64,000 nt of DNA from Candidatus Komeilibacteria bacterium. Its GTDB lineage: Bacteria > Patescibacteriota > Patescibacteriia > UBA1558. This document shows positions 29,866 through 35,732 of the stretch, piece by piece. Position 1 is the first letter of the stretch; every line of letters starts with the position of its first letter. The stretch is taken from NCBI GenBank assembly GCA_048538275.1, contig JBLYPW010000001.1, forward strand, positions 212,919 to 276,918, written 5' to 3'. The translations under genes and the position numbers were made by a program. The notes beneath the pieces are model-generated. The model had not been told where the DNA came from, made no database searches, and saw only the letters and a list, made by a program, of their open reading frames with translations.

Positions 29866-31371
29866 ATGTTTACTAGGCAAATATATATTATTATCTCGGT
29901 TAGCGCCTTTATGCTGGGTATTTATCTGGCGGGGCGTCAGAATATTATTCAGGTAGTGAATTTTAAGATTTTACTGGCCAGTTTTTTTATTATCTCCTTG
30001 GTTTTGTTACCTTGGCGTCGGATGCGTTGGTTTATTGTTATTTTTTTTATGTTGTTGCTGGGTATTTGGCGTTGGCAGATGGTACAGCCGGCCGGCGGTC
30101 TTGGGGATATCAGCAGTTATGGCCAAAAGTTTAGTAGTGACCGCCGGCCGGCTAGTGTTCACTGGCAGGGTCAGATAATAAAAGCTCCGGTTATTAAATC
30201 CGATGCCCAAAGTTTGGTAGTAGCGGCGCAGGTGATAGAAAGAGATGGCCAATATATAGCAGCACAGGGGCAGGTAGCGGTAAAAGCTTTTGTATTTCCC
30301 GAATATCATTATGGTGATTTATTGGATTTGGAGTGCGTTTTGTATCGTCCGGACAAAATTGAAGACTTTGCTTATGACGAATATTTAGCTAAACAAAATA
30401 TTTATACCGCTTGTTATTGGCCAAGAATAAAATTAATAGCGTCGGGGAGGGGATATAAAGTGCAGTCATGGCTGATTGGCGGACAGACAACATTACGAAA
30501 TTTAGTAAAGCAACATTTGGTTGAGCCAGAAGGCGGTTTAATTATGGCTTTGTTATTGGGGGATAAAAGTGATTTAGCTGATGACGTACGCAATGATTTT
30601 CAACGACTAGGTGCGGCTCATATTTTGGCGATTTCTGGCATGCACATCGGTATTATTAGTGGTTTATTGTGGCAATTATTGATTTGGTTGTCTTTACCGC
30701 GTCGCTGGCGAACGGTATTGGCAATTATTTTGATTAGCGCCTTTGTGATTTTAGTGGGCGCGCCACCCTCCGCTATTCGGGCAGCCATTTTATGGTCATT
30801 GATTTTACTGGCTCAATATTATGGTGCCGCGGCGCAAAGTTTGACTGCTTTGGCCATGGCTGCCCTGGCTATGCTGTGGTTTAATCCGCGTTGGCTCTTA
30901 TATGATTTGGGTTGGCAATTGTCATTTATGGCAGTATTGAGTCTATTATTATTCGCTCCCGCCGTAGGCAAGTATTTACGTCAGGAGCCTGGTGGCGAGG
31001 GGTGGCGCGCTTTATTGCAAGCTGGTATTGCCGCTCAAATTATTACCTTGCCCTGGGTAGCCTATAAATTAGGACAAGTATCTCTGTTAAGTTTATTAGC
31101 AAATATTGTGCTAGTACCTCTACTCCCACCCCTTTTGATTTTATCTTTATTATCTATTTTATTTAGTTGGTTGCCGATTGTGGGTCAATTATTGTGGTGG
31201 TTAACTTGGTTATTGAGTCATCAATTATTAGACGCGGCTAGTAATTTGAATAAGATACCATGGGGCGCGTGGCAGAATTTGCATATATCATTGCCCATAG
31301 TTTTGTTTTATTATTTATCGCTACTGACTGCGTATTGTTTTTTGAAAATAAAAAAAAGCCGAGTTGTTTAG
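29866..31371 (+). CDS. comEC: ComEC/Rec2 membrane channel protein (DUF4131 plus competence domain; no MBL domain in this ORF)
   Basis: ..LGDKSDLADDVRNDFQRLGAAHILAISGMHIGII.. competence-domain hallmark; polytopic membrane protein. Confidence 0.8.
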   Translation: MFTRQIYIIISVSAFMLGIYLAGRQNIIQVVNFKILLASFFIISLVLLPWRRMRWFIVIFFMLLLGIWRWQMVQPAGGLGDISSYGQKFSSDRRPASVHWQGQIIKAPVIKSDAQSLVVAAQVIERDGQYIAAQGQVAVKAFVFPEYHYGDLLDLECVLYRPDKIEDFAYDEYLAKQNIYTACYWPRIKLIASGRGYKVQSWLIGGQTTLRNLVKQHLVEPEGGLIMALLLGDKSDLADDVRNDFQRLGAAHILAISGMHIGIISGLLWQLLIWLSLPRRWRTVLAIILISAFVILVGAPPSAIRAAILWSLILLAQYYGAAAQSLTALAMAALAMLWFNPRWLLYDLGWQLSFMAVLSLLLFAPAVGKYLRQEPGGEGWRALLQAGIAAQIITLPWVAYKLGQVSLLSLLANIVLVPLLPPLLILSLLSILFSWLPIVGQLLWWLTWLLSHQLLDAASNLNKIPWGAWQNLHISLPIVLFYYLSLLTAYCFLKIKKSRVV

Positions 31372-31415
31372 TATTCATTATGAAGATAAACGACCCGGCT
31401 TAAATTGATGGGGAA

Positions 31416-31787
31416 TTATATTTTTATATACAGTTTGTTGTTGCCCAGTGGCAGCATATTGTGGAAGGGCGAAGTTTGTTTAGTTTTTTTTCTTCGCTGT
31501 ATACGTATTGTATACGAATTATTTTTCCATATCATGCTCACAGCTACATAGCCGTGTGGGTTGATAAGCGGATTAAGCTGTCGACAAATCGCTTGCGCTT
31601 GAACGCGCTGAAATTCATTGGGCTGGCTGATCGGCGTGAGGTAATAGACATCATCATTCACCTCTCGGTCAAAGCTGAATTGGCCAACCTTTTTGTCGCC
31701 CACTGAAATGATGGCAATTTTTGGGACAAAGCTATTCATTGGCATGGTTTGCTTATTCACTATGACCTCCTTGTACTTTTGTGGCAA
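31416..31787 (-). CDS. hypothetical protein (antisense cassette between the two ComEC-related genes)
   Basis: ORF only; it overlaps the upstream ORF by 35 nt in a different frame, so the two may be one frameshifted gene. Confidence 0.35.
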   Translation of the reverse strand: MPQKYKEVIVNKQTMPMNSFVPKIAIISVGDKKVGQFSFDREVNDDVYYLTPISQPNEFQRVQAQAICRQLNPLINPHGYVAVSMIWKNNSYTIRIQRRKKTKQTSPFHNMLPLGNNKLYIKI

Positions 31788-32130
31788 TGTCCAGTAAGTG
31801 TCGGTTTATATGGATGCCGACGCAATTCTTGACTTCAATGGTCACCCGCCATGCCAAATTTTCCGGTATTAGCAAATGCATATTGCAACCATCTTTCCCT
31901 TTGTGGAACTTGTTATTAAAGCGCCGACAAAAATCTTTCATGAGATTGAGGGAAGGTGGGTTGGTACCGGGCTCAATGTGAACATCACCAGGAAAATCCT
32001 TAGGAAAATAAACGGTAACGTGCTGCTCGGGGTTGAAAAGAACTAAATCCAATTGGCGCTTGTCATGACATTCCAGCACCATAATTGATGTTTTGTCTGC
32101 GCCTACTGTTGATCTGATGGTTTCTGTCAT
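31753..32130 (-). CDS. hypothetical protein (antisense cassette between the two ComEC-related genes)
   Basis: ORF only; no recognisable family. Confidence 0.35.
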   Translation of the reverse strand: MTETIRSTVGADKTSIMVLECHDKRQLDLVLFNPEQHVTVYFPKDFPGDVHIEPGTNPPSLNLMKDFCRRFNNKFHKGKDGCNMHLLIPENLAWRVTIEVKNCVGIHINRHLLDIATKVQGGHSE

Positions 32131-32190
32131 TCGTCCTCCTGTTTTGGTTGTTTAGCTTATCAAAAAACGTATTTTCTAATTTACAATTTT

Positions 32191-33075
32191 ATGAAATATT
32201 TGTCAATAGCGAGTAAAAAATGGCTTTATTATAGTCTGGTTTTGTTTGGTGCTATGTTATTTTTATGGCAGTATAGTATGCAAGCTCAGGCCAATGATGG
32301 CTTGGCTCGTTTTGTGTTTTTGGATGTGGGACAAGGGGATAGTATTTTAATTATCACTTCCGATAATAGAAGAATTTTGGTTGATGGCGGTCCTACTACG
32401 GATCTGGCTAATGATTTGGGTCCGTGGCTCAATCCTCTGGCGCCAAGCATAGATATGATGTTGCTTAGTCACGGACATGATGATCATGTCACAGGTTTTA
32501 TTGATATATTGAGACGCTATCCGGTGGGTCAGGTATTTTATTCTGGAGCAGTTGAGTTTTACGCGCCAGCTTATCGGGCTTGGTTGGGCATTTTAAAAGA
32601 TATTGGCATGAGACCAAAGATGCTTATGGCGGGTCAGGTACTTAATTTTACTAGCGAGGAGAATATAACTATTTTAGCACCACAGGTATCCTGGGACGGG
32701 CAAGAGGCGGATGATTTGAATGATACTTCGGTAGTGGTTAAATATTGTTATAAATTGGTTTGCTTGTTATTAACTGGAGATGCCACCGATGAAGTAGAGC
32801 AAGCTATCTTACATAGTGATCAAGATGTGAGGGCACAAATACTGAAGGTAGCGCATCATGGTAGTCGTTATTCTAGTAGTGTGGAGTGGTTAAGCGCGGT
32901 TAAACCGGCAGTAGCTATTATTCAAGCGGGACAAGACAATTCTTTTGGTCACCCACATACCGAGTTATTACAGCGTTTAGAGTCTCAAAAAATACCCCTA
33001 TTACGGACAGATCAGCAAGGCGAGATCGTCATCATTACTGATGGTGAGAAATGGTGGCAACAGTCGTCCCAGTAG
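32191..33075 (+). CDS. ComEC-related metallo-beta-lactamase-fold protein, encoded separately with its own N-terminal TM
   Basis: FLDVGQGDSILI..; HGHDDHVTG (HxHxDH); ..AHHGSRYS. Confidence 0.8.
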   Translation: MKYLSIASKKWLYYSLVLFGAMLFLWQYSMQAQANDGLARFVFLDVGQGDSILIITSDNRRILVDGGPTTDLANDLGPWLNPLAPSIDMMLLSHGHDDHVTGFIDILRRYPVGQVFYSGAVEFYAPAYRAWLGILKDIGMRPKMLMAGQVLNFTSEENITILAPQVSWDGQEADDLNDTSVVVKYCYKLVCLLLTGDATDEVEQAILHSDQDVRAQILKVAHHGSRYSSSVEWLSAVKPAVAIIQAGQDNSFGHPHTELLQRLESQKIPLLRTDQQGEIVIITDGEKWWQQSSQ

Positions 33076-33127
33076 CTTGCCAGCAGTGATATTTTTCGCT
33101 ATACTGAAAGCAATTGATTAGTTTTTT

Positions 33128-33511
33128 ATGACACCCAAAAACAAGCGGACAATTGTATTGGTGGAGGATGAAGAGATTCTCTCCAATATGTATAAAATGA
33201 AATTAATTAAATCAGGATATGAAGTGCAGACAGCTAATGATGGCAAGGCTGGCTTGGATTTGATAAAGAAAGTTCAGCCGGATGTTGTTTTGCTGGATAT
33301 TATCATGCCCAAATTGGATGGTTTTGCCGTGCTGGAGGCATTGCACCAAGAAGATATTACCAAGGACATCCCTATTATTCTCTTGACTAATTTGGGGCAA
33401 GAAGAAGATATTAAGCGGGGCAAAGAATTGGGAGCGGTCGGTTATTATGTTAAAGCTAATTTGACCCCGGGTGAGTTAGTGGATAAATTAAACAAGTTTA
33501 TTAAGAAATAA
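33128..33511 (+). CDS. stand-alone response-regulator receiver (CheY-like) protein
   Basis: VLVEDEE.., phospho-acceptor context VVLLDIIMPKLDG, K near the C-terminus. Confidence 0.85.
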   Translation: MTPKNKRTIVLVEDEEILSNMYKMKLIKSGYEVQTANDGKAGLDLIKKVQPDVVLLDIIMPKLDGFAVLEALHQEDITKDIPIILLTNLGQEEDIKRGKELGAVGYYVKANLTPGELVDKLNKFIKK

Positions 33512-33523
33512 TTTTTATAAATT

Positions 33524-33985
33524 ATGGAAAAATCATTGATTATATTAAAACCCGATTGCCTACAACGTAATTTATTGGGAGAAATTATTAAACGTTTTGA
33601 AAACAAGGGTTTGAAAATAGCAGCACTAAAAATGGGAAAAATTTCAGATGAACAGATTGATGAACATTATAGCCATCACAAAGATAAGCCATTCTTTGCC
33701 GGGCTTAAAGGTTTTATGCAATCCGGGCCAGTAGTATTTATGGTGGTAGAGGGGTATGAAGCGGTTAGTTCTGTTCGTACCATTGTAGGGCCAACAGTAG
33801 GTAGAAAAGCTGATGCCGGATCTGTTCGGGGTGATTTTTCTATGAGCCATTCTAATAATATTGTACACGCCTCTGATTCATTAGAAACTGCAGAGGTAGA
33901 GATTAAACGATTTTTCCAGGCAGATGAAGTTTTTGATTATTATAAAGATGATTGGAAATGGGTTTATGCTGATGATGAACAATAG
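33524..33985 (+). CDS. ndk: nucleoside diphosphate kinase
   Basis: NDK fold: ..LIILKPD.., GSVRGDF, NIVHASDS. Confidence 0.9.
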   Translation: MEKSLIILKPDCLQRNLLGEIIKRFENKGLKIAALKMGKISDEQIDEHYSHHKDKPFFAGLKGFMQSGPVVFMVVEGYEAVSSVRTIVGPTVGRKADAGSVRGDFSMSHSNNIVHASDSLETAEVEIKRFFQADEVFDYYKDDWKWVYADDEQ

Positions 33986-34007
33986 ATTATAATTTTTTCC
34001 ACATCAT

Positions 34008-34036
34008 GGTCGCTGGACATGTCAGCGACCTTTTGT
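34008..34036 (+). terminator. rho-independent terminator after ndk
   Basis: ggtcgctggacatgtcagcgacc hairpin followed by ttttgtt. Confidence 0.6.
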
Positions 34037-34258
34037 TATCCTAAAATAAAGATAAAAGTTATGTCCTATTTTTATTCCCAAATTATTAGCAAGATTGTTC
34101 GCAACTTTATGTTGTGGGTCTTGGTTTTGGGAAAAAATAGCGGCAGCTAACTTTTATTAGGAAAATATAGTAGAGAATATTAGTTAGCCCGCTGGCTAAT
34201 TTTTTTATTCTGCTACTTTGGTTAGTTCTTTTCAAATCAAACAGCATTGGGAGGTACC

Positions 34259-34534
34259 ATGCAGGACACACATAATGGTCCAGGTTATTTTTTAAGCGAT
34301 GCAGAATATCATCGTTTGGCTCTGCAGGCCATACAAGCTCAGCGGGATGAGCTGGTATGGAAGTATGGCGAGGATAAAATCCAAGCTGATCCGGTTTTAC
34401 GATTGCAGTATCAGGAATTTGAATCCTTGATTGAGCAACATGCGGACAGCGTAGCAACGCCAAGGGGTCAGAGCGGGTCGTCGGCGACTTTGTCATCAGA
34501 AATTGATAATCGTTTAGTTTTTGGGAGGTTTTAA
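34259..34534 (+). CDS. small hypothetical protein (first gene of a coupled two-gene operon)
   Basis: GGAGG RBS 5 nt upstream of the ATG; its stop abuts the ATG of the next ORF; local GC is higher than the flanks. Confidence 0.45.
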   Translation: MQDTHNGPGYFLSDAEYHRLALQAIQAQRDELVWKYGEDKIQADPVLRLQYQEFESLIEQHADSVATPRGQSGSSATLSSEIDNRLVFGRF

Positions 34535-34801
34535 ATGTCAGCGGAAACTGGTTTTGCCATTGTGACAGATAGTTCTGTTGCTAAACAGGAACAATCAACT
34601 AGTGTATTGCGGTTCATTATTTTATCTGAATTAAATAAAATAGAGCATGAATTACGCCAGTTGAAAGACTCAGGAGCAAGTAAGTGTTGTCCAGCCCGTA
34701 AAGAACTGATTCGTAACAAACGTCGTTTGGAAAGCCAGCTACGGCAACAAAAAATCCACGATGCTAATAAGAAATTCAGGCAGGAACCATATTTTGCCTA
34801 A
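34535..34801 (+). CDS. small coiled-coil protein (possibly DUF465/YdcH-like)
   Basis: ..IEHELRQLKDSGAS....KELIRNKRRLESQLRQQK.. pattern; translationally coupled to the upstream ORF. Confidence 0.4.
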   Translation: MSAETGFAIVTDSSVAKQEQSTSVLRFIILSELNKIEHELRQLKDSGASKCCPARKELIRNKRRLESQLRQQKIHDANKKFRQEPYFA

Positions 34802-34818
34802 TTTCAGCTTCAATATTA

Positions 34819-34848
34819 GCCATCTTGTAAAACAAGGTGGCTTTTTTG
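34819..34848 (+). terminator. rho-independent terminator
   Basis: gccatcttg-taaaa-caaggtggc hairpin followed by tttttt. Confidence 0.55.
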
Positions 34849-34877
34849 TTGACCCCAATTTTGTCATTTGTTATAAT
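34849..34877 (+). promoter_or_regulatory. consensus sigma70 promoter (TTGACC-N17-TATAAT)
   Basis: Read directly from the sequence. It drives a region with no conserved CDS. Confidence 0.55.
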
Positions 34878-34885
34878 ATAAATGT

Positions 34886-35140
34886 TCTAATCATGCCGAT
34901 AGATTGAATTTCTACAACCTTTATTTTTAGGGAGTTTGCGTGGATTCAGGTCGTGGTCTGAATTCTAGGACACCCAGCGGCAAAAGTTATGCGTCTTTTG
35001 AGCAAATCGGTTTATACCAATTTTCGTCAAGAGTGCTTAACTGCCCGGATGTTGCAGAAGGACTTCCAATGCGTATCGGTATGATTAGGACGATAAAGAA
35101 TCTCTGTTTATGGGCAGGGATTTTTTATTTGTCAGTAATT
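34886..35140 (+). ncRNA. candidate small RNA, or mRNA for a 74-aa GTG-initiated peptide with a C-terminal TM (34940-35164)
   Basis: A strong promoter directly upstream. An AGGGAG RBS sits 5 nt upstream of the GTG. Internal hairpin ggattcag..ctgaattc. There is no match to tmRNA, RNase P or SRP consensus motifs by eye. Confidence 0.25.
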
Positions 35141-35336
35141 GATTTTTTTGTTATACCGTGGTAATTTATATCTGTTAGAATTATTTTTTTGATGCGGTTT
35201 TATCAGTAAAATTCTACTTGAATAAACTTGATCCTAGAGGTATAAGTGTGTGAGGGAGAGGAACAAGCGCGGTGAGTAGAGTAGAGTAGCTATGACTGGT
35301 TTATAGCTATAAAATGACGAGCCGCGATGACGACGA

Positions 35337-35413
35337 CGGGGTGTAGCGCAGTTGGCTAGCGCGTACGCATGGGGTGCGTGAGGTCGCGGGTTCGAGTCCC
35401 GCCACCCCGACCA
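35337..35413 (+). tRNA. tRNA-Pro (anticodon GGG)
   Basis: Manual cloverleaf: acceptor cggggtg/caccccg, anticodon loop atGGGgt, T arm gcggg-ttcgagt-cccgc, encoded CCA. Confidence 0.8.
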
Positions 35414-35732
35414 GATTAAACTTTTTTCAAAATCAGAGGCGTTTTGTTGCTCGTTCGCCGCGTTTCCGTCCCGCCTGCGCGGGGCTTCGTTCGCATTTTT
35501 CTCTATATTAAGGTTAAAGCTTTGAAATTTTTGCAGATCAAATGAAGCTGTATTTAAATAAGAGGATAAGGCAGTTAATACCATTATTACTTATCTGCAG
35601 GCCAAGCAAATCAAGAGTCAAAACGAGTGATATGTTATAATACTTATATGAATGTTACAATGCTGTATTGGTAAATTTTTATCAAATTTATATTTGTATC
35701 ATTTGCATTGTTAAATTATTAATTACTAATAT

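Follow-up and report, generated by a model that had tools for sequence, protein, structure and literature searches.

A probable tandem pair of Komeilibacteria-restricted small-protein genes located antisense within an apparently ancestral split of comEC

In canonical ComEC/Rec2 (TIGR00361) all three domains are carried by one polypeptide, and ComEC-like proteins without a metallo-beta-lactamase (MBL) domain, e.g. NF045979, are already recognised. The window, by which we refer to the whole stretch of 64,000 nucleotides that was analysed, stems from a 487-kb contig of a Candidatus Komeilibacteria (Patescibacteria/CPR) MAG and has two polypeptides in place of the one. The two corresponding genes jointly cover the TIGR00361 model (positions 83-409 by the upstream and 415-663 by the downstream gene product), each half staying below the equivalog cut-off of that model (91 and 132 bits versus 190). 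As in ComEC/Rec2, HxHxDH and HHGS motifs are present in the MBL gene of the window, and a transmembrane (TM) helix is located ahead of the MBL domain. A further difference is that the two genes are kept apart by an antisense unit instead of being coupled. Between 20 and 45 kb of the window the plus strand carries nearly every gene, and the order around the locus is prfB - vanZ - comEC-N - gap - MBL gene - receiver-domain gene - ndk. The features of the locus are:

29866-31371, plus strand: comEC-N, channel part of the split ComEC, 501 aa (Pfam, TIGR00361)
31348-31401, minus strand: predicted intrinsic terminator of the antisense unit (RNA fold, sequence)
31416-31760, minus strand: ORF B, 114 aa from the GTG at 31760 (Shine-Dalgarno sequence, Logan gene call, family HMM)
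31753-32130, minus strand: ORF A, 125 aa (BLASTP to syntenic ORFs, family HMM)
32178-32206, minus strand: predicted promoter of the antisense unit, TTGACA-17-TAAATT (promoter scan, 10/12 matches)
32191-33075, plus strand: comEC-C, free-standing MBL nuclease-type subunit, 294 aa (Pfam Lactamase_B, TIGR00361, motifs)

The 501-aa product of comEC-N matches PF13567 (DUF4131; 7e-11) and PF03772 (Competence; 1e-55), and no MBL domain was found in it by Pfam. The product of comEC-C matches PF00753 (Lactamase_B), contains the motifs SHGHDDH (HGHDDH) and AHHGS and has its own N-terminal hydrophobic helix, which we read as a TM anchor. The gap between the two genes comprises 819 bp, and two minus-strand ORFs are located inside it. 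A first-pass annotation of this DNA had described a comEC ORF with the DUF4131 and competence parts but without an MBL domain, a separate MBL gene with an N-terminal TM segment, HGHDDH and AHHGS about 820 bp further on, and two opposite-strand ORFs of 125 and 123 aa without recognisable family in between; all of this was borne out by our analysis, for the two ORFs by searches of Pfam, NCBIfam, PADLOC and PHROGs.

To place the split in a wider context, 92 loci were compared, i.e. the window, 11 loci fetched by exact protein and 80 loci from metagenomes. Fusion of comEC-N to the MBL part occurs in none of them. The MBL gene abuts or overlaps comEC-N in 18 of the 92 loci (gaps of -82 to +28 nt) and is separated from it by 335-4581 bp in 12; no MBL gene is present within at least 1.5 kb downstream of comEC-N in 46, and in 16 the contig ends too early to judge its position. 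Similarly, the roughly 20 closest relatives of ComEC-N among 5.8 billion proteins are 444-523 aa in length, the closest relatives as a whole measuring 430-530 aa, and none of them has an MBL domain. As far as can be read from these sequences, the comparison shows that the split into a channel gene and a gene for a TM-anchored MBL protein is an ancestral trait and the general rule in this part of the Patescibacteria, as the first-pass annotation had considered in proposing an ancient split. The spacers between the two genes are diverse and comprise a sense methyltransferase gene (L031), an IS200-like Y1 transposase gene (L045), an antisense fructose-1,6-bisphosphatase (FBPase) gene (L089), a multi-gene block (L017) and other orphan ORFs (L028 and L043); the comEC-N/MBL junction is, by its contents, a place where unrelated genes accumulate.

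Because the split is ancestral and general and is found without a spacer in many lineages, we conclude that it was not caused by the cassette of ORF A and ORF B. The earlier proposal that the cassette is a remnant of the element that caused the split is therefore abandoned: the split predates the cassette, and neither terminal repeats nor similarity to transposases were found. The other proposal, that something was inserted between the halves, holds in so far as the cassette is extra DNA at a junction where, in 18 other loci, the halves abut or overlap; the cassette is, however, itself old and lineage-specific. In the relatives comEC is naturally split with unrelated spacer content, and the antisense gene recurs as a conserved single ORF, which is essentially what the first-pass annotation had named as speaking against its own scenario. 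The apparently interrupted comEC is the normal state in this group, and comEC of these Patescibacteria is a two-gene system of a channel and a TM-anchored MBL subunit. No description of the CPR comEC split or of the small-protein family addressed below was found in the literature consulted. We also observed IS200/IS605-type Y1 transposase genes directly 3' of comEC-N in L003 (6509-7129) and L004 (4680-5258) and, as a faint match, directly 3' of the MBL gene in L091 (3470-4021).

ORF A is preceded by the Shine-Dalgarno (SD) sequence AGGAGG at 32135-32140, 4 nt ahead of its ATG. An identical SD sequence is located at 31766-31771 inside the 3' end of ORF A, 5 nt ahead of the GTG at 31760, and the realistic ORF B is therefore likely to be the 114-aa version starting there; the alternatives are 123 aa (31416-31787, from the most upstream TTG) and an NCBI call of 107 aa. 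With the GTG, the start of ORF B and the stop of ORF A have 8 nt in common (GTGAATAA), which has the appearance of a standard coupled junction. The overlap of 35 nt in different frames that had been reported before is obtained from the most upstream TTG, and it is an artefact because this first TTG was taken as the ORF B start. The GTG is also where the gene caller begins ORF B on L092, a Logan contig from an independent assembly of a sequencing run, which is identical to window positions 31366-35414 (4049 nt) apart from one mismatch at 35237. The predicted products differ in pI (7.1 for ORF A and 10 for ORF B), and both ORFs appear to be more than chance open frames. L092 ends at 31366, exactly within the hairpin and the A8 tract next to the stop codon of comEC-N; either strain variation at this boundary or faulty assembly of the hairpin could account for the break. 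Farther downstream in the window, in the stretch at 34000-35420, ndk and tRNA-Pro(GGG) (35337-35413) flank small ORFs of the plus strand (34247-34534 and 34535-34801); the gene calls of 91 and 88 aa on L092 in this stretch have no match in Pfam, and it is another stretch of lineage-specific small genes.

Single ORFs related to ORF A are present in four further Komeilibacteria loci (coordinates are those of the respective locus):

L002, 6458-6772, antisense, between comEC-N and MBL gene: family member of 104 aa
L007, 6001-6315, antisense, between comEC-N and MBL gene: family member of 104 aa, from a close relative of L002
L088, 1718-2035, antisense, between comEC-N and MBL gene: family member of 105 aa
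L001, 4576-4917, antisense, between vanZ and comEC-N: family member of 113 aa

All five Komeilibacteria loci that were examined thus have the small gene at the comEC genes or next to them, with one copy in each of the relatives and two tandem ORFs in the window. In L001 the comEC halves overlap by 14 nt and the small gene is located upstream of comEC-N. BLASTP relates the products of the relatives to each other (L088-L002, 1e-29; L088-L001, 2e-10; L002-L001, 3e-8) and to ORF A (5e-6 with L088, 3e-5 with L002), and in a six-frame control distant genome pairs matched significantly in the annotated frame only. Nine positions are invariant in the five-genome alignment A5 (P47, D49, P54, N72, H76, H85, W94, T97 and N102). 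The family HMM built from the five sequences matches these five genes, ORF A included, and has a significant match to nothing else among the 2850 ORFs of all loci, and the family is therefore absent from the 80 other patescibacterial comEC neighbourhoods. By these criteria ORF A is a member of an undescribed small-protein family known only from Komeilibacteria.

The expression signals of the family are equally uniform. All five genes have TTGAC[AT]-17-TA[AG]ATT 47-55 nt upstream and an AGGAG[GA] SD sequence 4-5 nt ahead of the start, and all are arranged head-to-head with a comEC cistron at a distance of 60-85 bp. The -35 hexamer overlaps the MBL ATG itself in L002, L007 and L088 (ATGTCAA / TTGACAT) and sits within codons 4-6 of the MBL gene in the window. 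Between the -10 element and the SD sequence, the 5'-UTR of the small gene contains a block, GTACATTCAAC in L002 (6773-6846) and L007 (5927-6000) and GAACATTCAAC in L001 (4918-5000); this block may be an operator or an RNA element, and the window has no evident counterpart. ComEC-N of the window has diverged far from that of the other three (34-39% identity; those three mutually share 51-76%), and since the small gene is present in all of them despite this divergence, we infer that it is an old resident of the locus which was duplicated in the lineage of the window. The position between the comEC halves seems to be the more parsimonious ancestral state. As the whole neighbourhood (ftsZ...prfB-vanZ-comEC-RR-ndk) is entirely syntenic, the linkage to comEC is not separable from inherited gene order.

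Several lines of comparison suggest that ORF B is probably a highly diverged tandem duplicate, i.e. a paralogue, of ORF A, a relationship that we consider moderately supported. Among the 2850 ORFs, ORF B is the best match of the family HMM outside the members themselves, with E = 0.19; as a single comparison the same match has E = 6.7e-5 and runs collinearly through HMM positions 20-87. When ORF B was shuffled 20000 times, its score was reached in 11 cases (p about 6e-4). Profile alignment by hhalign gives E = 0.12 against the family, and BLASTP E = 1.6 against ORF A. The AF2 model of ORF B has the order beta-beta-beta-alpha-beta-beta, as has that of ORF A, both being single-sequence models with pLDDT values of 64 and 44, respectively.

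Neither family and structure searches nor the gene context led to a biochemical assignment. ORF A, ORF B and the family members have nothing significant in Pfam, NCBIfam, PHROGs (E >= 0.055) or PADLOC, and NCBI annotates the small protein as a hypothetical protein. When 5.8 billion proteins were queried with ORF A and ORF B by word index, the two recovered nothing but themselves. ORF A was also compared exhaustively with 1.84 billion representatives by phmmer, which retrieved the query and three artefacts, no true homologue. One of the three, P0123 (1278 aa), matches residues 2-48 of ORF A through its multihaem-cytochrome repeat 'CHDKHSLELVLFN', which is present eight times: the ORF A segment 'SIMVLECHDKRQLDLVLFNPEQH' resembles the repeat unit 'SIGCIVCHDKHSLELVLFNGSEY', and the eight repeats lead to E = 5.7e-18. 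This match was judged a repeat-inflated chance similarity because ORF A has no CxxCH haem motif. The other two are satellite-like repeat translations, and all three were rejected as cumulative short-repeat scores. A match to TIGR04339/PF23509 'MSMEG_3727' was also rejected, as it reaches 15 bits over 28 residues versus a cut-off of 75 and concerns the near-identical L002/L007 pair only. No similarity of either product to a known toxin, antitoxin or defence family (Pfam, NCBIfam, PADLOC) or of the cassette products to transposases or integrases (Pfam, NCBIfam, PHROGs) was detected, and no DNA-binding or known regulator domain was found in the family. Scanning GTDB genomes with the family pattern matched L007 alone, and nothing was found by the same scan of viral contigs, by tblastn against phage genomes or by an Rfam scan of the cassette. 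No terminal repeats or target-site duplication bound the cassette, where short low-identity chance repeats were all that was seen. At the structural level, the profile search against PDB sequences gave 0 matches at E <= 10, and Foldseek with the AF2 models gave nothing at E <= 0.001 in PDB and BFVD (TM <= 0.45), matches with a kinase N-lobe-like topology being judged non-specific. With low confidence, the products are modelled as cytoplasmic alpha/beta proteins with a predicted beta-beta-beta-alpha-beta-beta core.

The small protein evolves considerably faster than its neighbours. Between L088 and L002 it is 42% identical, compared to 76% for ComEC-N and 72% for the MBL protein. In the closely related pair L002 and L007, the copies of the small gene differ at 14 sites, distributed 5/6/3 over the codon positions (dN/dS about 1.05), whereas in the same low-divergence segment the C-terminal part of comEC-N has 15/2/34 (dN/dS 0.14) and the 5' part of the MBL gene has a dN/dS of 0.07. 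A ratio of about 1 next to 0.07-0.14 in the flanking genes thus indicates that constraint at the protein level is weak over short times. Along the syntenic stretch shared by L002 (450-8800) and L007 the nucleotide identity swings between 56 and 98%, and a block of 93-98% comprises the 3' two-thirds of comEC-N, the small gene and the 5' end of the MBL gene, a mosaic which suggests recombination between lineages. In the window, the per-codon log-likelihood is -0.02 for ORF A and -0.12 for ORF B compared to 0.26-0.63 for host genes, and GC3 is 0.45-0.48 versus 0.33. Rate and codon features are those of an orphan protein that is under weak constraint or diversifies rapidly. Codon usage and the weak short-term constraint count against our reading of the cassette, as does the restriction of the family to five genomes.

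With regard to expression, transcription of the antisense unit would start at the promoter at 32178-32206 and proceed leftwards. ORF A would be translated from AGGAGG-4 nt-ATG and ORF B, which has no promoter of its own and is apparently co-transcribed with ORF A, would be translated by coupling through the GTGAATAA overlap. The antisense RNA would then end at a hairpin (31356-31401) which is followed by U8 on the minus strand and overlaps the comEC-N stop codon (31369-31371). The terminator fold amounts to -17.5 kcal/mol (z = -5.1), and none of 200 shuffles was as stable; read on the plus strand, the same hairpin has a poor U-tract only. The signals argue for a self-contained, well-expressed bicistronic minus-strand unit coding for two soluble proteins. 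No sigma-70-like promoter or SD sequence of the MBL gene was recognisable on the plus strand at 32131-32190 by promoter scan and inspection of this stretch. The comEC subunits are translationally coupled in relatives, and the one effect of the cassette on comEC that we infer is that it breaks this coupling of the halves: the unit may uncouple the expression of the two subunits and oppose read-through into the MBL-RR-ndk genes, because it runs head-on to read-through from comEC-N to the MBL gene and places a hairpin at the end of comEC-N.

Several other explanations of the cassette have to be considered. The first-pass annotation had suggested that the two ORFs might be one gene with a frameshift, be it a sequencing error or a pseudogene, based on the 35-nt overlap in different frames that the most upstream TTG yields. 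We regard this as barely credible: the independent assembly L092 has the same sequence and shows no difference across the junction, ORF B has its own start and SD sequence with the spacing seen in all family genes (AGGAGG-5 nt-GTG), and the 8-nt overlap is that of an ordinary coupled junction. Moreover, the homologues stand alone with 104-113 aa and align to ORF A only, and an ORF colinear with A plus B was not found among the relatives. An origin of the cassette from a mobile element, of which it would be a remnant, or from foreign DNA that entered recently and thereby split comEC, is highly improbable given that comEC is split in all lineages sampled, in 18 loci without any spacer, and that the small gene is common to deeply diverged Komeilibacteria at the same locus. 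The atypical GC3 and codon usage of both ORFs would agree with such an origin, as would the repeated acquisition of genes at the comEC-N/MBL junction and the IS200-like transposase genes beside comEC-N or the MBL gene elsewhere (L003, L045 and, faintly, L091); however, neither inverted nor direct terminal repeats bound the cassette, and similarity to transposase, phage or defence proteins was detected neither in the family databases nor in viral contigs and phage genomes. It is likewise very unlikely that the ORFs are untranslated, i.e. chance open frames in a non-coding spacer or an antisense RNA locus. The main evidence in this direction comes from the near-zero codon-usage scores of ORF A and ORF B and from L002 and L007, in which dN/dS is about 1 and the differences are spread evenly over the codon positions at a total divergence equal to that of the constrained comEC, but the frame is open in five genomes at 23-42% amino acid identity with similarity that is significant in that frame only. 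In addition, a strong SD sequence at the correct spacing precedes every copy, the invariant residues are kept, and the cassette has no match in Rfam.

The alternative that deserves more weight, although we still consider it unlikely, is that the small proteins genuinely work together with the split ComEC, acting as cytoplasmic regulator, chaperone or inhibitor of the MBL subunit, or that the gene provides a divergent factor or antisense RNA which sets the channel:nuclease ratio. It draws on the head-to-head position 60-85 bp from the comEC cistron in all five Komeilibacteria loci, on the -35 hexamer, which adjoins the region around the start codon of the divergent comEC cistron or overlaps with it, and on the MBL gene of the window being without a recognisable promoter of its own. 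Even in L001, where the copy lies on the other side of comEC-N, the gene still faces the comEC start with its promoter intact; this relocation is, however, a single event. The adjacency may also have been inherited together with the syntenic neighbourhood, the family is missing from the 80 other comEC loci of Patescibacteria, which manage with the same split, the small protein evolves far faster than ComEC-N or the MBL protein, and a DNA-binding or known regulator domain was not found. A direct role at ComEC, be it in regulation or in inhibiting or chaperoning the free MBL protein, is suggested by the persistent head-to-head arrangement only and is rated as rather improbable. Doubtful to a similar or slightly greater extent is the more specific proposal that the split ComEC of Komeilibacteria has the family as a component of its own, kept head-to-head with a comEC cistron because its product or antisense transcription controls the MBL subunit, and that the tandem pair in the window, neutral and basic, has become sub-functionalised; such control would be exerted by cytoplasmic inhibition or chaperoning or by setting the ratio of channel to nuclease.

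Taken together, the cassette probably holds, in two tandem copies, a gene for a small, soluble and fast-evolving protein of about 105-125 aa, restricted to Komeilibacteria and residing in an anciently split comEC. The small proteins themselves are most likely, by a cautious estimate, taxon-restricted passengers that take no direct part in DNA uptake. What the cassette contributes is a single small-protein family that had not been described, is confined to one taxon and shows very clean expression signals. Should the family interact with the MBL subunit, it would offer a handle on the assembly or regulation of split ComEC in organisms that are thought to depend on DNA uptake.

Among described systems, comER of Bacillus subtilis is transcribed opposite to the comE operon, as the cassette is with respect to comEC; it codes for a ProC-like reductase and is located upstream of comEA, not inside a split comEC. 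To our knowledge, comER has no demonstrated role in competence, and we know of no sequence relationship to the ORFs of the window. Type II toxin-antitoxin systems resemble the cassette in that two small ORFs are co-transcribed with overlapping stop and start and form an opposite-strand island. In contrast to the two different partners of such systems, the products of the window are probably paralogues of each other, the relatives carry a single copy, and there is no similarity to toxin-antitoxin or defence models. The closest likeness in general character is to the orphan small-protein genes of Patescibacteria/CPR, which are similarly short, soluble, fast-evolving and without a domain match, and which likewise belong to one candidate phylum-level group. 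Compared to other orphan small genes, the Komeilibacteria family is set apart by unusually canonical and conserved expression signals and by its persistent head-to-head arrangement with a comEC cistron in every carrier genome.
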